Below, piece after piece: positions 6,666 to 55,210 of a stretch of DNA of 64,000 bases (the first letter of the stretch is position 1; each line of letters opens with the position of its first letter). The DNA lies in the NCBI GenBank assembly GCA_031963225.1, contig JASSUD010000001.1:23942-87941 (forward strand), written 5' to 3'. This DNA is from Mycoavidus cysteinexigens (lineage in GTDB: Bacteria > Pseudomonadota > Gammaproteobacteria > Burkholderiales > Burkholderiaceae). A program made the position numbers and the translations under genes. The notes beneath the pieces were generated by a model. It had not been told where the DNA came from and searched no databases. It saw nothing but the letters and a program-made list of their open reading frames with translations.

Positions 6666-7025
6666 TTAGTAATCATTTTTTCCGCTTCGAGTAAAGAAAC
6701 CTGGTTGCCCCCATTTTTCTTCTGTTTGTATCGGTAGTTGGGTTTCACTTTTTTCAGTGTGATTTATTTTTCTATTTGAAGAAAAGCTTCTGGAAACACC
6801 TTTTTTATTGAATTTTTCGGAAGTAGATTCTTTATTGATATTAATCTTCAATGATTTGGTTATGGTTGTTATGCCTTCATGAAGTGAGGATTTAAGTTTA
6901 CTGAAATTGCCAAATATTCCATTATTAGAGTTCAGTTTCTGAAGTCCATTTTTTTTTTGAGGCTGGAGTGTGGGTAAATTATCGATGCTTTTTTTAGGAC
7001 CTACTTCCCTATGTGTTTTAAACAT
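6666..7025 (-). CDS. Hypothetical small basic, low-complexity protein (119 aa)
   Basis: The internal ATG at 7025 is preceded by AAGAGG (spacing 6), so it is preferred over the track start 7094. Very AT-rich. No recognisable domain. The coding strand contains an A10 tract (6949-6958). Confidence 0.4.
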   Translation of the reverse strand: MFKTHREVGPKKSIDNLPTLQPQKKNGLQKLNSNNGIFGNFSKLKSSLHEGITTITKSLKININKESTSEKFNKKGVSRSFSSNRKINHTEKSETQLPIQTEEKWGQPGFFTRSGKNDY

Positions 7026-7300
7026 GCTGCACCTCTTTTGCCTATAAAAATTATTAAATTTTAATTGCCTAACACCGAGGCCTTTACGGATCATTAAACG
7101 ATAAAAATATATTTGATTTTTTTTAAAAACGAAATCTATAGGAATAAAACGAAGTTACGGGGCAGTTTGAATTTTCTGAATACAAGTTAGGAGTATCAAG
7201 CTTATGATTTTTTAGCTGGAGGCTGAGATGGCAGTGGATAAATTTCAGGAACTTAAAATTGATCTACCAAAAAGCTTCAAAAATATAGTTGCCGCTTGCT

Positions 7301-7357
7301 AAAAACTAAGGGTATGAACGGATTGGTCTGTAAGACCTATCTGCGTTATATATGCGC
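7301..7357 (+). promoter_or_regulatory. Island promoter-like box, copy 1
   Basis: AAAAACTAAGGGTATGAACGGATTGGTCTGTAAGACCTATCTGCGTTATATATGC. TTGGTC (7323-7328), 17 nt, TTATAT (7346-7351) resembles sigma70 -35/-10. Lies about 60 nt upstream of the 7411 start. Four related copies elsewhere. Confidence 0.55.
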
Positions 7358-7410
7358 GTTATTACTCATAAGATGCTTGCAAAAAAGATGCATAAAAAGA
7401 GAGAGGCGCT

Positions 7411-9312
7411 ATGGTCAACCCCTTAGCCACTGAAACGTCATACAGTCCAGCAGCACCTCAGGCTACTACCGGAAACATAAAAAAGGGCGATTCCTTCAAA
7501 GCCCGTTTCGCGCAAGGTCCTTTTGGCCCTTTTATTCCTGCTGCTATCGAAGAGCAGGAAAAAGTTCCTCAAAAAGCAGTTCGCGATCCTTTCATCAGGC
7601 ATCTGACAACCGAGTATTTTGGAGCCGAGTACCACAGCAGTCTTGCGCATATACATGACAAGGCAGTGGCAGAAGCTTTTAGCCCTCCTCGTAAATCCTT
7701 TCTTAGACGCGTAGTGACGGCCCCTTTTGCCGCTTCTACATGGCGCATGAAAATGCTCCCGCCTCTCTCTCCTGAGATATTTATCCGGGGAGTAAAGACA
7801 CTGCCTTCTAGGAAAGAAGAAAAAGCAGAGCCAGCAACAAGCAATAGCCAGGATATGGTGCCGGCCTCACTGGCCGATAAAGTGCAGCTCTTAGAAAACG
7901 TTTCGGACAAACTAGATGCGCTGTTCAGAGAAAATATCCTGAATACCCGTAAGCTCTCTGTAGAAGACCGGAAAAAAGATCTAGATTTAATCAAAGATTA
8001 TCAGCAAAAGATTAGAGCGACTTATACAGCACCTGAGTCTATCGTGAAAAAGCAGGCCGCTTCTGCACCGCCTTTGATGCTAAAAGAGAGTGCATCTCCT
8101 ACTCAAAATTCGGTGGTGCAGACTGCTACTGAAGAAACTAGCTCTTCCCATTCTCGTCGCACTACGGTGTATGAAATTGTAGATGGGGAAGAGGAAGATT
8201 TTGAATGTATAGACACGCTTTATACACCGGGGGCTAATCCTTACGCTACTACCGTACAAGAGATTCTAGATGAAGAAACAGTAGAGTCTCTGGATATGAC
8301 GTATGCATTTTTTAATGCATCAGAAGGTGGGGAGGTTTCATATTTGAATGCCTCAGAAGACCCCTCTGAACAGACATTTTCCGAAGCATGGGCCGTCTTT
8401 AAGGCCACTGCCAAGAGCATTACTGAACATAATCGCCCCGAAGATGGGATAGTACAAAAAATCTGCTTGACCCTTCTTAGTAGCTTAAATAGAGTAGTAA
8501 GCTCTTTATGCATTCCAGGCCTGTCGCTTGTTACGGACATGACTAAATATGTATTTGAACTTCACGCATTGTCTAAGATTCGAGAATGGGAAAACAGGAA
8601 TGCAATTAGAAAAGCATTGATAGAGATTTCGAAACCCATAATAACTTCCTCAGAGGGAGAGGCATTAGATATGAACGCAGTCAGTAATATTAATAGTTTT
8701 ACCACAGAAACAGCCATTAATTTAGCCAATGCTACGGGCGCTGCTATGCAAGTGCATACAGAGGATGTAGCTTCAAAAATTGCTCAGCATACGGAAAAAT
8801 TACAAAAAGATTTAGATGCTGGTACAGTAAAACTACAGAAAGATTTGAATGCTGGTACAGCGAGACTACAAAAAGATTTTAATAACGGTGCCGCCATTCT
8901 CATTGATGGTAATGCCGCCATCATTGGAAAATTGGAAGCCATAGAAGCAAATCAGCGAAGACAGGAAGAACATCAGCGAAAATTAGCACAAGATGTTGCT
9001 CCTCTTTTAAGAGTGCGTAAAACTTCAACTAATTCACTTGGCTCAAACGCTGACTCCGCTATTGGTCTTAATGATGGATCTCCATCTGGCTCTCGTTCTG
9101 TTAGCCCAGTAATAACTGATTCTCATAGTCCAGATTTTATCCATAAAGCTGAAGTGCAAGAGATCGTCGATAAGGCCTTGAAAGCCCAGGAAGAAAAACA
9201 TGCTAAAGAGATTGCTGGGTTAGAAGCTAAAGTGGATCGAACCAATCAACTATTGGAACAGTTTCTCCTTGGGCTACAAGCAAAAAATCAAGCAGCTGCA
9301 CAGGGTAATTAA
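7411..9312 (+). CDS. Family A: hypothetical 633-aa protein with coiled-coil C-terminal half and Ser-rich tail
   Basis: GAGAGAGG RBS. Internal 3x33-bp repeat (KLQKDL-D/N-AGT). Weakly hydrophobic segment ICLTLLSSLNRVVSSLCIPGLSLV. Ser-rich GSRSVSP region. A truncated copy of its 5' end is at 21591-21695. Confidence 0.75.
   Translation: MVNPLATETSYSPAAPQATTGNIKKGDSFKARFAQGPFGPFIPAAIEEQEKVPQKAVRDPFIRHLTTEYFGAEYHSSLAHIHDKAVAEAFSPPRKSFLRRVVTAPFAASTWRMKMLPPLSPEIFIRGVKTLPSRKEEKAEPATSNSQDMVPASLADKVQLLENVSDKLDALFRENILNTRKLSVEDRKKDLDLIKDYQQKIRATYTAPESIVKKQAASAPPLMLKESASPTQNSVVQTATEETSSSHSRRTTVYEIVDGEEEDFECIDTLYTPGANPYATTVQEILDEETVESLDMTYAFFNASEGGEVSYLNASEDPSEQTFSEAWAVFKATAKSITEHNRPEDGIVQKICLTLLSSLNRVVSSLCIPGLSLVTDMTKYVFELHALSKIREWENRNAIRKALIEISKPIITSSEGEALDMNAVSNINSFTTETAINLANATGAAMQVHTEDVASKIAQHTEKLQKDLDAGTVKLQKDLNAGTARLQKDFNNGAAILIDGNAAIIGKLEAIEANQRRQEEHQRKLAQDVAPLLRVRKTSTNSLGSNADSAIGLNDGSPSGSRSVSPVITDSHSPDFIHKAEVQEIVDKALKAQEEKHAKEIAGLEAKVDRTNQLLEQFLLGLQAKNQAAAQGN
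8797..8895 (+). repeat. 3 x 33-bp in-frame tandem repeat inside the family A gene
   Basis: AAATTACAAAAAGATTTAGATGCTGGTACAGTA, AAACTACAGAAAGATTTGAATGCTGGTACAGCG and AGACTACAAAAAGATTTTAATAACGGTGCCGCC. Confidence 0.8.
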
Positions 9313-9392
9313 AAATTTTTTTTTTAGAAAAACATATAGAGAATTTTATATATTTTGCAGAAAATTGCAGCGCAATAAAATATACTTATAAA

Positions 9393-9426
9393 ATGGCTCT
9401 TTGAAATAAAAAGGGCCATATTTTTA
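9393..9426 (+). terminator. Possible weak intrinsic terminator after the family A gene
   Basis: TGGCTCTTT / AAAGGGCCA imperfect stem followed by TATTTTT. Confidence 0.3.
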
Positions 9427-9478
9427 ATATGACCCCATCCATTTTTTGCTGCTGGCTAGTAGCTACAGGAAAATAAAT

Positions 9479-9826
9479 ATGAATTCTGCGGGTTCTATAC
9501 AACCACAGCGCACTGTTTGTAATGCTTCACTTATCGGCCAAGTTAACGAAGTTGGAAACATTGAAAAAGAGGAGGGCGGTGCAGTAAAGACTAATCTTCC
9601 GCTTGAAACGAGAAAGATTGCTCAGGAAGAACCGATATATTGGCGGATGGATACTGGTAAGGTGCTCACGGATTTAAACATTCGGCTGACGGTATTATTG
9701 TTCTGCACTATACCTTTTGCTTTTTTTGCTTCGACTGTCTTCCTATTTTGTGCACCAATTCTTGCCGCATTAATTTGCATTATAAAAACATGGTGTGACC
9801 TGATTAAAAGTCATCATGGATACTAA
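9479..9826 (+). CDS. Family B: small protein with one ~40-aa bilobed hydrophobic segment (115 aa)
   Basis: The ATG at 9479 follows the conserved leader CCATTTTTTGCTGCTGGCTAGTAGCTA shared with the 14930 and 21022 genes. Motif IAQEEPIYWR, then LTVLLFCTIPFAFFASTVFLFCAPILAALICII. Paralogues at 21022-21330 and pseudogene 14930-15250. Confidence 0.7.
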   Translation: MNSAGSIQPQRTVCNASLIGQVNEVGNIEKEEGGAVKTNLPLETRKIAQEEPIYWRMDTGKVLTDLNIRLTVLLFCTIPFAFFASTVFLFCAPILAALICIIKTWCDLIKSHHGY

Positions 9827-9936
9827 TATGGTTGAGCACACAAAGTTTATGGCAAGGGAAGTGCCTCAGGAAGCTCAACTGAATTGGATGCATTTTTATA
9901 AAAGAGAAAAAACTATTTAGATCAGGAAATAGAGAG

Positions 9937-10758
9937 ATGTGCCCTATCGCAATATCTTCAGCTAACCCTCTGTATCAGAGTCGGTTAAATTATCCTACTA
10001 TCGAAGATGATAGGGCAGCTCCTCTGCTACGCACAGCAGAGATTGGCGGATTGCTTGAAATGGAACCGTTATTGGTCATTCATGCACCTATTGAACAAGT
10101 GCATGCGCGCACATTTTCTTTTTCTACGACAACAAATCGGTTACAACCCTATATTGAAAGTCAGGCAAACTGGGATCCAAAAGGTTATCTGGTATGCTGG
10201 TTCTCAGCTGTTTCTTTGGGAATGTCTATACTAATTTTCAGTTTACACTGTATCGAAAAGTATCATGAAAATCATCAAGAGATACTGACTGCTCAGATTA
10301 TCAATATTCTTCTTACCTCGTTCAAGTACCTTCATTTTTTATTTTCCTGCCCTGCCTCTTGTATTAAATGGTCCCAAAAAGCAGCCAGATGGTTGTCGCC
10401 AAATCGCGCTTCAGAGCAGCGCATGGTACTAGCAAGCGCTTCACGCATTGTGCAAAAACCAACGAATTGCTTTTGGCCTACTATTCAATGGTGGGCACGG
10501 CTAGATAATAATGATTATTATTTACATGATGTATTAAGAGTGAGCTCCTTTATAACAGCTACGCTGAGCTTTTTTTTACACCTTATTGAAAAAAAACATG
10601 ATAACCATACGCCAATGCTATGGCTCGAGGGAGCGAACATCTGTCTTAACGTTTTTCTCATCTTGCATGATGTAGCAAGAATAGCTGTACAAGAATGGGG
10701 GCAACCGAGTCTATTGCCGCAGAATGCTATACGGATGACAAACTATCAAACTATCTAG
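9937..10758 (+). CDS. Family C: multi-pass membrane protein with duplicated H-x2-EK-x2-(E/D)NH motif (273 aa)
   Basis: LHCIEKYHENHQEILTAQIINILL and LHLIEKKHDNHTPMLWLEGANICL each sit between hydrophobic helices. C-terminus IRMTNYQTI. Paralogue at 21724-22476 ends IRMANYQTV. Confidence 0.75.
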   Translation: MCPIAISSANPLYQSRLNYPTIEDDRAAPLLRTAEIGGLLEMEPLLVIHAPIEQVHARTFSFSTTTNRLQPYIESQANWDPKGYLVCWFSAVSLGMSILIFSLHCIEKYHENHQEILTAQIINILLTSFKYLHFLFSCPASCIKWSQKAARWLSPNRASEQRMVLASASRIVQKPTNCFWPTIQWWARLDNNDYYLHDVLRVSSFITATLSFFLHLIEKKHDNHTPMLWLEGANICLNVFLILHDVARIAVQEWGQPSLLPQNAIRMTNYQTI

Positions 10759-14600: not shown

Positions 14601-14636
14601 TGCCCCACTCACTCAGCATGTTTGGGGCATTTTTTT
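14601..14636 (+). terminator. Intrinsic terminator (repeated spacer module)
   Basis: TGCCCCA..16-nt loop..TGGGGCA followed by T7. The same module recurs at 21390-21426, in each case about 60 nt before a promoter-like box. Confidence 0.55.
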
Positions 14637-14693
14637 GATGTTTTTACTTGGTATGCGATAGAGAAGTATTTATGCATAAGTATTCTATAAACT

Positions 14694-14750
14694 AAAAAAT
14701 TAAGGGTATAAATGGATAGGTCTGTAGAGGCAGTTCACGTTATATATGCG
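14694..14750 (+). promoter_or_regulatory. Island promoter-like box, copy 2
   Basis: AAAAAATTAAGGGTATAAATGGATAGGTCTGTAGAGGCAGTTCACGTTATATATGCG. The box and about 180 nt downstream (to 14929) are collinear with 19220-19455. Confidence 0.5.
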
Positions 14751-14929
14751 TTTTAGTAATTGTAAGATTGCGATGACGCCTAAAAGGAGAAGGTTAGATC
14801 AACTCCTTCCCTTCCGTATTGAAATTCCATTCAGTTCAGCACCTTCTCGGGCTGCCAATTTTTAATACGATCCATCTCTATTTATACAATCCATTTTTTG
14901 CCGCCACCTAGTAGCTATGCGGAGATAGT

Positions 14930-18940: not shown

Positions 18941-19219
18941 TATTTCTCCTGATTGAAGAAAGGGAGGGAAGACAGCGGTAGATGCAAAAACGCTGTCGGT
19001 TGTTGAACCCGGCTTTCTACCATTCAGAAGCAGATTTGCTACTACAGTTTATAACTGATAATTTTTCTTGCATGCGCTATTTTTTTAAAATGCTGGTTTA
19101 GGCTGCTTTTTTTATGACTACCCTTTTTACCTTATTTTTTGCTGCCTCATTTTGATATTTTTTTATAGGCTAAGGTGTGCCTACACAAAAAAATAAAAAT
19201 ATATTTTCTCTATATCCCG

Positions 19220-19274
19220 AAAAACTCAGGCTATAAATGGATAGGTGTGTAGAGGTAGTTCACGTTATATACGT
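19220..19274 (+). promoter_or_regulatory. Island promoter-like box, copy 3
   Basis: AAAAACTCAGGCTATAAATGGATAGGTGTGTAGAGGTAGTTCACGTTATATACGTG. Followed by the same ~180-nt leader as copy 2, ending in a family-B leader remnant (TTTTGCTGCTGCCTAGTAGCTAGG) with no ORF. The next gene starts at 19609. Confidence 0.45.
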
Positions 19275-19608
19275 GTTTTTGTAATTGTAAGATTGCGGTG
19301 ATGCCTAAAAGGAGAAGGTTAGATCAACTCCTTCAGTATTGAAATTCCACTCAATTCAGCGCCTCCTCGGGCTGCCAATTTTTAATACGATCCATCCCTA
19401 TTTATACAATTCATTGAATTTTGCTGCTGCCTAGTAGCTAGGCGGCGATAGCTAGACAAACTAGCCATTTTTCTAAGCTAGGGCACTTACTCTAAATCAG
19501 GGATGAGTTTGCGTTAGAGCACTCGAATCAAAGACCGATAGCCAGGTTAGTTAGGAGCAGCCGTCTGTCTTAAATTAGAGGGCAATTTACCCAAAGCTCA
19601 TCAATCCA

Positions 19609-20661
19609 ATGATAAATAAAATAATTGGTGTTCCCGTTTTTAATCGATCCGTCTTGGGCAATGATCCAATGTATTACGTCAAAAAGGGCAAAGAATGCTT
19701 CGACTGGGCCCATCATCAGCACCACAACATGATTGTTGAGACCCAACGTCTGTGCGCTAAAGTGCAAGATACGCTGAAAAGAGTTATACAGCTTGGAAAG
19801 GTTGAGGAAGAGGCGGAGCAGGACGCGTTACGTTATCCGCAATCTTTTTTAGATATATATCGAAAAGCGTATCACGCAAAACAAGAAATTGATGCTTTAG
19901 CAAAAGAAATTGCGCAATCTATACGTCCTCCTGGAAGAGTTCTTGAAGCGCCGATCAAATCAAAGCAAAGAGCAATGGAAAAGATCCATCGCGATTACGG
20001 TGGAAATGTAAATAAAATAACGGATCTGGCCAGAAATACTCTTATTGTTGACCCTAGAAATTTTAGGAAAGTATGCGAAAAACTGAAAGCACGGGGGGCC
20101 CGGCTCAAGGTATTGTTAGAAGAGAACGTACCGTCTGGCTATAGCGGGATTAATGCAACGCTGACCACCCAAACAGGGCTCATTGCGGAGGTCAAGATTA
20201 ATTCCCCTCAGATGATTTATACGGAAGTTCCAAAAAATAAAGCGAAAGAAGTTTTGGGTGAGAAGCTTTTTTGCAAAATCGATCAATGGGCGAGAGTGCA
20301 CGGGTTCCGTGCTGGAGAAGGTCATAAACTATACGAAAAACTACGGGCGCTAGGATCGCAAGACACAGATAAAAAATCTAAAATTGAGAAAAAGAGTCAG
20401 CGTTACTATTTCCAGATAAGAAATATGCCCTTGCGTTTTCAAGACGGAACAAGAATTTACAGAAATGAGCATGAGCAGGCAATGAAAAAGATCATAGAGG
20501 GCTCAGCGCAACTACAAGAAGGCCGATCTTCTCCTCGGCCGGCAGGCTCCTTCATGCTGCGGAAATCACGTAGCAATGGACATACTCCACTAATAACCAA
20601 ACAAAATTTGCGCGCAAGCTTGGATTGGTCCCTTACATTACCAGACACAGCCATCACTTAA
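19609..20661 (+). CDS. Divergent RelA/SpoT-domain (small alarmone synthetase / toxSAS-like) nucleotidyltransferase (350 aa)
   Basis: Ordered motifs PIKSKQRAMEKI, ITDLARNTLIV, PSGYSGINATL, AEVKINSPQM and GHKLYEKLR match the order of RSH synthetase-fold motifs as recalled. No clear RBS, so the start is uncertain. Confidence 0.5.
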   Translation: MINKIIGVPVFNRSVLGNDPMYYVKKGKECFDWAHHQHHNMIVETQRLCAKVQDTLKRVIQLGKVEEEAEQDALRYPQSFLDIYRKAYHAKQEIDALAKEIAQSIRPPGRVLEAPIKSKQRAMEKIHRDYGGNVNKITDLARNTLIVDPRNFRKVCEKLKARGARLKVLLEENVPSGYSGINATLTTQTGLIAEVKINSPQMIYTEVPKNKAKEVLGEKLFCKIDQWARVHGFRAGEGHKLYEKLRALGSQDTDKKSKIEKKSQRYYFQIRNMPLRFQDGTRIYRNEHEQAMKKIIEGSAQLQEGRSSPRPAGSFMLRKSRSNGHTPLITKQNLRASLDWSLTLPDTAIT

Positions 20662-20718
20662 AATAGAGCTAAATATATAGCTGTGTTTATGACGGATATG
20701 AAATAAGAACAGATAGAA

Positions 20719-20918
20719 ATGCACAAAGAATCCAGCGTTGACACTGACTGCCCCTTGAGCGGAAAATTAACAATGGTGCGGGAGAGGAGGCGGTTGCGGC
20801 TTCAGAATTAAAAGTCGCCCTTAAGCAGATCAAAGCATTGCAAAGAATGCTAGTCAAAAAGACTTTGGAAGCAGGAATTTTGCTCGAAGCGGTGGAATAT
20901 GGCTGGGTAAAAAACTAA
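20719..20918 (+). mobile_element. IS3-family transposase orfA remnant
   Basis: 20790-20918 reads [42 protein letters not shown]-stop, typical of the leucine-zipper end of IS3-type OrfA. It ends in AAAAAAC, like an IS3 slippery site. The upstream part is out of frame, and no orfB or inverted repeats were seen. Confidence 0.5.
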
Positions 20919-20964
20919 GGCTACAAATGGATATACGTATAGAGACGGCTCACGTTATATACGC
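20909..20964 (+). promoter_or_regulatory. Island promoter-like box, copy 4
   Basis: AAAAAACTAAGGCTACAAATGGATATACGTATAGAGACGGCTCACGTTATATACGC. Overlaps the end of the IS3 orfA remnant. About 55 nt upstream of the 21022 start (short leader variant). Confidence 0.5.
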
Positions 20965-21021
20965 AGTTCAGTAATTTTTGCTGCTGCCTATGCTGCTGCC
21001 TAGTAACTACGCGGAGATAGT

Positions 21022-21330
21022 ATGTATTTTGCTACACCTTTTATATCAGCACACTATGCCGTTATTAATGATCAATTCCATACTGCCAAAATTGACTCAA
21101 CAATTGAACAAAGAGATGGCAGCAGAGTAAAGAGTAATTCTCCCTATCAAAGAGAGAGAATTGCGCAGGAAGAGCCATATTTGCAGAGGGGCATGGCTAC
21201 GGCACTTACTGATCAGGCCCTTCTACTGATCGCATTGATCTGCCTTGCGCCTGTTGCTTTTGTAGCTCCACTTTCCTCCTTATTTTGTATACCGATTCTT
21301 ATTACACTGCTTTTGCTTGCAGAAGTATGA
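21022..21330 (+). CDS. Family B: small protein with bilobed hydrophobic segment (102 aa)
   Basis: GGAGATAGT-ATG. IAQEEPYLQRG, then ALLLIALICLAPVAFVAPLSSLFCIPILITLLLLA. Confidence 0.7.
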   Translation: MYFATPFISAHYAVINDQFHTAKIDSTIEQRDGSRVKSNSPYQRERIAQEEPYLQRGMATALTDQALLLIALICLAPVAFVAPLSSLFCIPILITLLLLAEV

Positions 21331-21389
21331 TATCAGTCGATTGAATTTAATAATAATTAAAAATAATTTATTACAAATAAATAGAAAAA

Positions 21390-21426
21390 TGCCCCGCTCA
21401 CTCAGCGTGTTTGGGGTATTTTTTTT
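21390..21426 (+). terminator. Intrinsic terminator (repeated spacer module, copy 2)
   Basis: GCCCCGCTCACTCAGCGTGTTTGGGG followed by TATTTTTTTT. 21380-21490 is collinear with 14590-14700. Confidence 0.5.
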
Positions 21427-21483
21427 GATGTTTTCGCTTGGTGTGTGATAGTGAGGTAATTATGCATAGATACTCCATAAACT

Positions 21484-21540
21484 AAAAAACTACGGGTATG
21501 AATTGATTGGTCTGTAAGACCTATTCGCGTTATATATGCC
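21484..21540 (+). promoter_or_regulatory. Island promoter-like box, copy 5
   Basis: AAAAAACTACGGGTATGAATTGATTGGTCTGTAAGACCTATTCGCGTTATATATGCC. The closest match to copy 1, and the similarity continues through the leader to the ATG at 21591. Confidence 0.55.
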
Positions 21541-21590
21541 TGCTATTACTCGTAAAATGCTTATAAGAAGTGTATAAATAGAGAGGCGCT

Positions 21591-21695
21591 ATGCTAAAAC
21601 CATTAGGCATGGAAGCTACATATAGTAAATACTTCAAAATGCAAAGTGGGTTCCTTATGGTTGCAGCGTTTTATGATGGTATGCCCTGTATTTAG
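21591..21695 (+). pseudogene. Family A 5' remnant (34 codons)
   Basis: AGAGAGGCGCTATGCTAAAACCATTAGGCATGGAAGCTACATATAGT parallels AGAGAGGCGCTATGGTCAACCCCTTAGCCACTGAAACGTCATACAGT at 7400-7446. Stop at 21693-21695. Confidence 0.65.
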
Positions 21696-21723
21696 AAGAG
21701 AAAAATTACTTGTATAAGGAAAT

Positions 21724-22476
21724 ATGCAGATGAGCCTTATTCCGCTATCTTCAATTTGCCCTCCATATCGTAATCAATCCAATCCTACTATAAATGAAGA
21801 AATAGAAGTCAGACAACCTCTAGTAGATACAGAGCAGGTTGACGAACTACCTACAACGACAGATCAGCTGCTATCTTATATCGAAGAGCGGGTGGATCCA
21901 AAAGGTAATTGGGAGTGTATATTATCAGTGAGCTCTACTGTAATGACTGCGGCTATTCTACTTTTCCATGGTCTTGAAAAATACAATGAAAATCATAAAG
22001 AGATACTGGGCACTCAGATTATTAATATTGTCATTATCACATTTGTTTATGCTAGGAGAGCTTTATACTGCACGGCTTCTTCTGTTAGTTGGTCTAAAAA
22101 AGTGGCTAAATGGTGGCAATCTAGGCGCTCGCCTGAACAAGTCGTAGCAACAGAAAATTTAAATATTACTCCGCGGCCAATTAGTTGTTTTTCATCTGCT
22201 TTTCAATATTTAAAAAATATAGAAAAAATGGATGATTATTTTTATTATGCCCTACAGGCTGGATGTTTTATCATTTTTTTAGAAACTTTCTATTTGCATA
22301 GGATTGAAAAAGATAATGAAAATCATGCATTTATATTGGGGCTTGATATACTCAATGTAGTGTATAGCGGTTTCCTGAGTTGGATTCAAATAAAAAAAAC
22401 TATAGCCGAAAACCGCATACAGCCGAATGTATTGCCGGTGAATAATATACGAATGGCAAACTATCAAACTGTTTAG
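21724..22476 (+). CDS. Family C: multi-pass membrane protein with duplicated H-x2-EK-x2-ENH motif (250 aa)
   Basis: FHGLEKYNENHKEILGTQIINIVI and LHRIEKDNENHAFILGLDILNVVY. Ends IRMANYQTV. The leader (AGAAGAGAAAAATTACTTGTATAAGGAAATATG) resembles that of 9937. Confidence 0.75.
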   Translation: MQMSLIPLSSICPPYRNQSNPTINEEIEVRQPLVDTEQVDELPTTTDQLLSYIEERVDPKGNWECILSVSSTVMTAAILLFHGLEKYNENHKEILGTQIINIVIITFVYARRALYCTASSVSWSKKVAKWWQSRRSPEQVVATENLNITPRPISCFSSAFQYLKNIEKMDDYFYYALQAGCFIIFLETFYLHRIEKDNENHAFILGLDILNVVYSGFLSWIQIKKTIAENRIQPNVLPVNNIRMANYQTV

Positions 22477-53955: not shown

Positions 53956-54900
53956 CTAATACAAGGTCAGTTTTGGTTTGAGTTTCAGGTTTTTCATTAG
54001 CGCATGAAAATCGTCTTGAGGAAGCCCTGTAATTTTGGTAATCAGCTCTGCTGGTAAACCTTCTTCTAACATCTTGTTTAATACTGCAAATTTCTCTTGC
54101 TGTACCCCTTTTTGCTGACCTTCTCGCTGACCCTCTTCCCAACCTTCCTGTTTAAGCTGCTGTGCAACGCTCATCATATCCTCCCCGGTTTTTGAACTGT
54201 ATTGATAAATCATCTTATAAAACTGATCGAAGTCTGCACAATTCCCTTCGCTTAACATGTAATGGAACACCTTCTTTTTTCGGTCCTTTGATAAAGGATG
54301 GTGGTCTAATCCTGTAACAATATCCTGAGCGAAATCGCATAAGTCTTTCACTTTTATATATTTCTGTAGCGTCTCCAGTAGCGCAATGCTGCCGTGTGTT
54401 CGGATTTCTTCATCAGGAATCGCGCTCACATCAATAATAATAGGTATTTTTGGAAAATCTCCTCTTCTTTTTTGGCCTGGATTTTCGAAGTGATCCAATA
54501 TATCTGCAGAATAAGGGTAGGGGCTTGTCCTCCCTCGATAAAAAATTAAAGAGGTTACTTCGGGTAGCTCATCATGTCCTTTGTCTAGATGCCCCTGCAT
54601 AACGTCGATTTCATAACGACAAACTCGTAATGGAAGCATCCGTTCAGCACCGCTTTGGTGCTCGATGAGCATGTATAGATAAGCGTCTTTTTTTCTGCAT
54701 TTTACGCGGTACAAAATATCGGTGAAGCGCTGTTTTAGCTCATTGCCAATAAATGAGCCATTTTGCAGCTCCAGTGTCGATAGATCACACTGCTGCTGAA
54801 GTTCTTTTGGAAGGTGTACTTCCAAAAAACGACGAGCAATTTCGATATCGCTTAGAAAATCTTTAAAGAGAGAGTCATGTGGCTTTGAGATATTGCTCAT
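53956..54900 (-). CDS. Rpn-family recombination-promoting nuclease / putative transposase (YhgA-like, PD-(D/E)xK)
   Basis: From ATG 54900: MSNISKPHDSLFKDFLSDIEIARRFLEVHLP..YMLIEHQS..LPLRVCRYE..IFYRGRTSPYPYS..DVSAIPDEEI, collinear with E. coli RpnA as recalled. Confidence 0.9.
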   Translation of the reverse strand: MSNISKPHDSLFKDFLSDIEIARRFLEVHLPKELQQQCDLSTLELQNGSFIGNELKQRFTDILYRVKCRKKDAYLYMLIEHQSGAERMLPLRVCRYEIDVMQGHLDKGHDELPEVTSLIFYRGRTSPYPYSADILDHFENPGQKRRGDFPKIPIIIDVSAIPDEEIRTHGSIALLETLQKYIKVKDLCDFAQDIVTGLDHHPLSKDRKKKVFHYMLSEGNCADFDQFYKMIYQYSSKTGEDMMSVAQQLKQEGWEEGQREGQQKGVQQEKFAVLNKMLEEGLPAELITKITGLPQDDFHALMKNLKLKPKLTLY

Positions 54901-55210
54901 CTGGTGTACGTGGAAGAATAAAGTGCATAAATGGCATTCCAGCAAGATTTATTTGCCCTGCCGCATGGATGTAATGCTTAATAGATCAGCTTGCTGCTCA
55001 AGAGAAGCTATGTTTTTTCCTCTCCAAGTAAGCTAACGTATCTAAGTTAAATGCTAAACCATACAAGTTAAAAAGTAAATCAAATGAGATATTTTTATCT
55101 AATTTAGTTTTATTTTTGGGTGGCAACATGTCTGTGTATAGCGCAAAGCCCCGTGTCCTCTATGAAGAAACGGGGCTTTCGTAATTCTTGGGCGTATGCC
55201 CGAGCTGAGG

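Follow-up and report, generated by a model that had tools for sequence, protein, structure and literature searches.

We identified an element of about 85 nt, here called the box, in front of every plus-strand unit of a variable island in the genome of Mycoavidus cysteinexigens. The box is conserved, always points towards the genes that it precedes, occurs before particular gene families only, is non-coding and unstructured, and has edges that coincide with recombination breakpoints. From sequence comparison we lean towards reading it as a propagated promoter-region/operator module, which would place the gene families A and B, and secondarily family C and a Tas1-like gene, under common control, with module shuffling as a by-product. 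Promoter activity, the position of the transcription start and co-regulation are what we infer from the layout and distribution of the copies described below.

A box family confined to one island

The window analysed here is a stretch of 64,000 nucleotides (C40:23942-87941) from an assembly of 2.85 Mb in 134 contigs, all of which was searched. A repeat search of the window found the 69-nt core of the box five times, each time on the plus strand, starting at 7299, 14693, 19218, 20908 and 21483 and with 71-86% identity to the reference copy (Table 1). The original prediction had located the five copies by the starts of their A-runs and was right to within 1 nt. The form that it gave for the box also describes a conserved element that is present, but this element is longer than was thought: it extends over ~85 nt, from a loose yTATAWMC about 10 nt before the A-run (2-10 nt 5' of it in most copies) to GTAAGA past position 69. 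Two details of that form hold in part. The GGAT is found in the other copies but reads TGAT in copy 5, and T(T/A)GGTC, supposed to occur in every copy, is present in three of the five, with TAGGTG in copy 3 and TATACG in copy 4 instead. The hexamers seen at the proposed -35 position are TTGGTC, TAGGTC, TAGGTG, TATACG, TAGACC, TAGATC, TGGGTC and TGGGTG.

A profile of the five copies was run with nhmmer against the whole 2.85-Mb assembly and recovered just those five (E 8e-16 to 3.5e-18); the best match beyond them had an E-value of 0.78. Searches of the whole genome with sub-motifs gave no further sites, and the matches to sub-motifs in C45, C56, C93, C110 and C127, which lie inside ORFs or REP elements, were rejected as chance. 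All five copies in the genome are located within one 14-kb stretch of the variable island. Given that there are only five copies genome-wide, the box is absent from the core genes and from the minus-strand genes of the island, and its proposed confinement to plus-strand island units is borne out. It heads every one of these units, as had been noted: the A1-B1-C1 unit, the B2 remnant, the RelA/SpoT-like gene, B3, and the family A remnant with C3. Similarity continues beyond the box in the two pairs of copies for which shared leaders had been described. Copies 2 and 3 have ~175 nt in common past the box, at 86% identity, and the leader common to copies 1 and 5, through the ATG of family A, was confirmed.

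Table 1. Positions in the window of the box copies, the genes behind them and the associated elements.
Feature	Position	Strand	Remarks
Box copy 1, A-type	7289-7374	+	36-nt leader, then ATG of A1 at 7411
Box copy 2, B-type body with A-type 5' edge	14683-14768	+	recombinant
Box copy 3, B-type	19208-19293	+	family B start lost; Tas1-like gene next at 19609
Box copy 4, B-type	20898-20976	+	ends after position 69 (~130 nt of leader deleted); ATG of B3 46 nt on, at 21022
Box copy 5, A-type	21473-21558	+	then ATG of family A remnant at 21592, then C3 at 21724
A1-B1-C1 unit, headed by copy 1	7411-10758	+	A1 7411-9312; B1 true ATG near 9476, end 9826; C1 9937-10758
B3, family A remnant and C3, headed by copies 4 and 5	21022-22476	+	B3 21022-21330; family A remnant 21592-21696; C3 21724-22476
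Tas1-like (p)ppApp-synthetase-domain gene	19609-20661	+	behind copy 3 and a captured family B leader
B-type leader, distal part	14769-14860	+	common to copies 2 and 3, G003 c and d, and G004 b; after copy 3 at 19294-19380
Family B proximal cassette	14861-14929	+	TTAATA-17-TACAAT, TTTTTTGCyGCy..CTAGTAGCTA, Shine-Dalgarno sequence, ATG
Terminator-like hairpin and T-run	14602-14636	+	~60 nt upstream of copy 2; same element at ~21390-21427 upstream of copy 5
IS2-group (IS3 family) orfA remnant	20676-20907	+	fused to copy 4 at the A-run of the frameshift window

Genes downstream of the box

Families A and B show no similarity to each other in blastp, and their leaders differ too. Searches of Pfam, NCBIfam and PADLOC assigned no function to families A, B and C; among the island genes scanned, two of the three proteins of family E gave sub-threshold matches to beta-propeller/WD40 domains, and there were no other matches. 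A regulator gene was not found in the island. The only transposase-like gene among the larger ORFs of the window that were scanned is a YhgA-like gene (Transposase_31, Rpn-type; 53956-54945, minus strand; Pfam E 7e-58), which is located between REP-like repeats.

Tas1 is a type VI effector with a (p)ppApp-synthetase toxin domain at its C terminus. The gene behind copy 3 had been called RelA/SpoT-like, and rightly so: residues 74-271 of its 350-aa product match this toxin domain of Tas1 (PDB 6ox6, E 2.4e-39). A TssC/VipB sheath gene is absent from the genome, so that the Tas1-like protein, if exported, must take another route. The genome has two FHIPEP-type export-gate genes, a type known from the flagellar and type III export machineries. 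Beside the Tas1-like gene we identified no obvious immunity gene.

Several of the genes behind the boxes have decayed. B2 is reduced to a remnant of 67 aa, family A remnants follow copy 5 and copy e of G003 (one of the related genomes described below), and the family B start has been lost after copy 3. The ORF of B3 is intact (102 aa) and lies directly behind box positions 1-69, with the family B proximal promoter deleted. Since some copies head decayed genes, part of the conservation of the box could reflect recent copying or gene conversion instead of selection.

The box in related genomes

Over three Mycoavidus genomes we count 12 strong copies: five in the present genome (G000), five in G003 (a to e) and two in G004 (a and b). 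All 12 are in sense orientation, 45-185 nt 5' of a start context that belongs to family A or to family B. A-type copies (copies 1 and 5, G003 a, b and e, and G004 a) are followed by ~40 nt that end in AGAGAGGCGCTATG, and B-type copies (copies 2, 3 and 4, G003 c and d, and G004 b) by ~95 nt of distal leader, after which comes a ~70-nt cassette. G003 copy d retains the full leader, unlike copy 4.

A more distant genome of the same genus, G001, yielded a weak profile match (E 0.0145) located ~115 nt upstream of a diverged family A ORF; the ORF itself was recovered independently, in a protein search. The same diverged box stands before another family A homologue of G001. Both homologues are weak, partial protein matches, with 31-39% identity over ~100-125 residues. 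The upstream half of their boxes is kept, as TAAGG..AACnGAT.GG..T.TAAGA, and at the position of TTATAT both have TATCTT, which is of the form TAnnnT and stands 17 nt after T(A/G)GGA(C/G). No match came from 57 other genomes of the bacterial family when they were searched with a sequence-only covariance model, and the pattern of invariant positions, searched in one genome per species, matched Mycoavidus only, plus the expected few chance matches in AT-rich genomes.

Family A has a second lineage (L053 on C24 of G000, L054 and L055; 514-544 aa, 36% identity), which is conserved in G000, G003 and G004. Its upstream region differs and has a good TATACT hexamer; the likeness to the box there (TAAGG .. 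CTGAGAG .. TTATAC) is too weak to call.

Conservation and layout of the element

Box copies of the same type are 75-86% identical, compared to 48-53% at the four-fold degenerate sites of neighbouring paralogues (families E, D, C and B), for which the expectation by chance is 27%; the overall nucleotide identity of these paralogues is 58-69%. From the GGAT to the GTTAT block none of the 12 copies has an indel, and the presumed spacer is the least conserved stretch. The orthologous A1 genes of G000, G003 and G004 have three unrelated upstream flanks and their homology starts at the box. Therefore, whatever drives A1 must be in the conserved 112-nt stretch that starts with the box and ends at the ATG.

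The box does not code for protein, with stops in every frame in at least 8 of the 12 copies. Its consensus fold reaches -1.7 kcal/mol with one compensatory pair (RNAalifold), the B leader showed no compensatory pairs and no covariation in support of an RNA fold, and an Rfam search of the box gave no match at E up to 1. We rejected a structured cis-regulatory RNA (riboswitch or leader) for want of covarying structure and of an Rfam match, and a small ORF or small RNA in the B leader, where the ORF is variable or frameshifted and covariation is lacking. No terminal inverted repeats were found at the box flanks, and a MITE or REP-type mobile repeat was discarded on this account and because the five copies are restricted to one 14-kb stretch.

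The original prediction had seen a sigma-70 layout in the box, and here the evidence is divided. The 17-nt spacer is constant, in the 12 strong copies as well as in both copies of G001, but the -35 is poor, with at most three of six matches to TTGACA in all hexamers. TTATAT lacks the key A at -11 and, within the clade of G000, G003 and G004, the shifted TATATA lacks the T at -7; no -10 register in this clade has both. In the position-weight scan no register is good in all copies, the best having a mean of 1.4 bits and the register originally proposed -2.1, and the consensus promoter scan flagged TTAATA-17-TACAAT of the family B cassette and not the box. Two other registers were rejected for inconsistent scores, namely TGGATA-17-(C/T)ACGTT and TTATAT-17-TAAGAT, the latter also being destroyed in copy 4, which still heads an intact B3. 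As no register scores well in all copies, the box, if it is a promoter, would be a weak or factor-dependent one, and the layout lends weak support to its assignment to sigma-70.

The genome has four sigma-70-family genes only. Motifs of other factors were compared with the box by eye: those of sigma-54 and sigma-32 do not fit, the spacing is 2-3 nt too long for the GGAAC..CGTT of sigma-E/ECF factors, and it is 24 nt here as against the PvdS/OrbS-type TAAAT-N16-CGT. A CRP/FNR-like dyad (TGTAR-N7-TCACG) was rejected since its spacing is wrong and it is not conserved. The hrpII/PIP box TTCG-N16-TTCG, another candidate, is absent from all copies and leaders; genome-wide this motif was observed 62 times, fewer than the ~84 expected by chance, and no link to type III secretion loci was found. 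There is a perfect TTCG-N16-TTCG at 7130-7153 on the minus strand, 36 nt before the ATG of a 142-aa ORF (6666-7094) and ~145 nt upstream of box copy 1, on the opposite strand to it. This match is probably due to chance, as the genome as a whole shows no enrichment of the motif.

If the box is a promoter-region/operator module, it would form the core of a cis-regulatory module of ~85 nt that comprises a promoter region and upstream control sites. The A-run could act as an UP-like element near -58 on the presumed numbering, and the deeply conserved TAAGG..AAyGGAT.GG, at about -55 to -33 on the same numbering, is probably an activator or repressor site. These would be followed by a weak -35, the fixed 17-nt spacer, an AT-rich -10-like hexamer (TTATAT or TATATA; TATCTT in G001) and a G+C-rich discriminator (TGCGCG), with a predicted start near box position 60-63. 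With such a start the element would extend from about -59 to +25, an extent close to the polymerase footprint. Family A would have a leader of ~50 nt and family B would gain a second, upstream promoter ahead of its own proximal one. The module may originally have belonged to orphan family A genes and may then have been copied before the unrelated family B genes, until gene decay and insertion brought family C genes and the Tas1-like gene behind it as well.

Recombination at the box

Copy 1 and the orthologous locus of G003 are homologous from the A-run onwards, with unrelated sequence upstream. Copy 2 is a mosaic of two parts, with the crossover inside the box: the 100 nt upstream of it, together with box positions 1-12, match G003 b, which stands behind the B3 terminator, at 88-96% identity, and its positions 12-69 and leader match G003 c at 91-100%. 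Gene order also differs at a box, being box-B1-C1 in G004 and box-A1-B1-C1 in G000 and G003. The mosaic of copy 2 and the arrangement in G004 indicate that boxes have served as crossover points, since modules that have otherwise diverged share no other long identical stretches. A hairpin with a T-run is found ~60 nt before 4 of the 12 copies (copy 2, copy 5, G003 b and G004 a); 5' of copies 2 and 5 it reads GCCCCAC..GTTTGGGGC, then T7. The hairpin 5' of copy 2 follows no plus-strand gene, and this marks the segment as a transplanted one.

A further-reaching reading, which we regard as conceivable but rather improbable, is that the box is a portable expression-and-exchange cassette, providing a regulated promoter, switched on by a presumed factor, for host- or competitor-directed accessory genes, the Tas1-like gene included, and at the same time a homology handle for their capture, swap and loss between modules and strains. 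If so, an endofungal symbiont would have in its chromosome a counterpart to the PeSL cassettes known from T4-type phages.

Copy 4 abuts an orfA remnant of the IS3 family, and for this reason it had been cautioned that the box could stem from a mobile element. The abutment is real; the derivation fares less well, as the intact relative ISBugl1 has no box and the other 11 copies have no IS. ISBugl1 reads GAATACGGCCGGGCAAAAAAATGGATAGCG and the flank of copy 4 reads GAATATGGCTGGGTAAAAAACTAAGG, with the last codons and the A6 run aligned. The similarity ends after the A-run, bar a displaced 10-mer, AAATGGATAG, which in the box lies 13 nt further on than in ISBugl1. The box profile did not match intact ISBugl1 even at E 1000, and no other copy of this IS was found in the assembly, where the remnant is its only trace. 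IS sequence adjoins copy 4, ~17 nt of it are left at G003 d, and by reading of the flanks no IS remnant stands at the other 11 copies.

In G003 the box follows the Tas1-like gene by 30 nt. That the remnant is an insertion specific to G000 was considered and then overturned by the ISBugl1 alignment: GGCTGGGT and the A-run are IS-derived and are also present beside G003 d, so that G003 is a deletion derivative. The deletion in G003 lies between two 12-nt repeats (ATATrGCTGkGT) and removed all but ~17 nt of the remnant. The most economical reading of the junction between remnant and box is an illegitimate join at the A-run common to them.

Alternative explanations

Instead of a promoter, the box might be a conserved 5' leader that acts as RNA, in stability or translation or by binding a small RNA or a protein. 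Transcription would come from a context-specific promoter immediately upstream and begin at the A-run, or directly before it, which would make the sharp 5' edge there the start site. The loose, TATA-like yTATAWMC lies 2-10 nt upstream of the A-run in most copies. Promoter-like pairs ending 8-9 nt before the A-run are present at copy 1 (TTGATC-19-TATAGT, 9.0 bits) and G004 a (TTGATG-17-TAACTT, 8.0 bits); each has a p of ~0.01-0.02 against AT-rich genomic windows, and the p combined by hand over seven independent upstream contexts is ~0.03. Nonetheless, we consider such a leader unlikely, as neither the box nor the B leader shows RNA structure or covariation, and both an Rfam match and a conserved small ORF are lacking. 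Moreover, the sequence upstream of copy 4 and G003 d is IS remnant with no promoter-like pair (-2.5 and -1.5), yet an intact B3 follows in both genomes. The box could also be devoid of a function of its own, the best-kept leftover of a segmental duplication whose copies stay similar through gene conversion between paralogous modules. An island made of three decaying module copies, with pseudogenes behind several boxes and demonstrable recombination between copies (the copy 2 mosaic), would be in line with this history, as would the finding that between orthologues of G000 and G003 the box is no better conserved than its homologous flanks. What makes such a relic quite unlikely is that the box heads two unrelated families with different leaders and upstream flanks, has the same orientation and a conserved distance to the start in all 12 copies, is recognisable before the distant family A homologues of G001, and has edges at which indels and replacements halt. 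If the element were inactive, the finding would come down to a trace that duplication and gene conversion have left in a decaying island.

The breakpoints invite yet another explanation, in which a recombinase or transposase would act on the box as a dedicated recombination site or mobile-element end, making it a cassette junction, and its position before genes would be a by-product. Homology does break at the box edges, the A-run is the exact point at which the IS remnant meets copy 4, and a box precedes B1-C1 in G004 and A1-B1-C1 in G000 and G003. However, no recombinase or integrase was found among the larger ORFs of the window that were scanned, the YhgA-like gene being the only transposase-like one and 30 kb off; there are no terminal inverted repeats, and reading of the flanks revealed no target-site duplications. 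The copies have a single orientation, occur only before genes and number two to five strong ones per genome, all inside these islands, and the crossover of copy 2 lies within 12 nt of ordinary homology, as homologous recombination predicts. We therefore hold a dedicated site to be very unlikely. Least credible of all, and close to negligible, is the view that an IS3-family element supplied the box from its orfA/orfB frameshift region. Next to copy 4 there is indeed a true IS2-group orfA remnant, whose last codons and A6 align with ISBugl1, with which there is also a shared 10-mer, but the profile has no match on ISBugl1, the similarity stops after the A-run, 11 copies have no IS upstream and the IS is single in the genome.

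Comparison with known systems

Type III effector regulons are marked by boxes such as the hrpII box of HrpB in Ralstonia and Burkholderia and the PIP box of HrpX in Xanthomonas, with the motif TTCG-N16-TTCG. In its proposed mode our box would be like these, a conserved box above a weak -10 marking dispersed, fast-evolving accessory genes for common activation. In contrast to them, it lacks TTCG-N16-TTCG, is far longer than a transcription-factor site and stands before no secretion-system gene.

Putative mobile promoters have been defined as upstream DNA of at least 50 nt with at least 80% identity within one genome (Matus-Garcia, Nijveen and van Passel 2012; PMC3575422). The Mycoavidus box is similar in that ~70-90 nt of upstream DNA are reused before unrelated coding sequences (family A, family B and, secondarily, the Tas1-like gene), and in having no recognisable transposon structure or known mechanism of movement. 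Unlike putative mobile promoters, A-type and B-type boxes are 57-76% identical here, which is under 80% over 50 nt; in the best 50-nt windows the identity is 84% for copy 5 and copy 2 (mostly flank), 76% for copy 1 and copy 2, and 60-70% for the other pairs. A further difference is that the copies are limited to one family of islands in one sub-clade of the genus. Segmental duplication accounts for most of the spread, along with one capture event or a few.

In T4-type phages, PeSL cassettes combine a terminator with early-promoter motifs and mediate the shuffling of modules (PMC2839356, PMC4122927). In both systems a short conserved regulatory motif heads variable genes without known function, marks the boundaries of insertions, deletions and replacements between relatives, and provides a crossover point between otherwise unrelated sequences. 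The terminator is a partial likeness: a terminator-like hairpin precedes the box by ~60 nt in 4 of 12 copies, but it is not a constant part of the element nor directly coupled to it. The setting differs too: the box lies on the chromosome of an endofungal bacterium instead of in a hyperplastic region of a phage. Its putative promoter does not conform to the strong early consensus, and its copy number is very low. The box resembles PeSL cassettes (PMC4122927) and reused promoters (PMC3575422) without clearly matching the formal definition of either. It is a lineage-restricted instance of a kind of feature that is already known.

Mycoavidus symbionts are hard to manipulate and the control of their fast-evolving accessory genes is very poorly understood. 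The shared module defines a small candidate regulon, consisting of families A, B and C and the Tas1-like gene, and could be used as DNA bait for its regulator. It also offers a small-scale example of promoter reuse, with one element, two unrelated families, a third gene captured and a recombination joint.

A second, more widespread repeat

The proximal cassette of family B reads TTAATA-17-TAC(A/C)AT, then TTTTTTGCTGCTGCCTAGTAGCTA, a Shine-Dalgarno sequence and the ATG. Elsewhere in the window it is found at 9415-9475 and 19381-19440, and partially at 20977-21021. Over the three genomes it stands before 15 family B genes, most of them without a box, and a terminator hairpin usually precedes it; the version before B1, inside the A1 operon, is degenerate. 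The hairpin of family B has the form GGCCCTTT..AAAGGGCC, and examples of the cassette include L015, L016, L018 and L019. Hairpin and cassette together make up a second terminator-promoter repeat, which is more widespread than the box.
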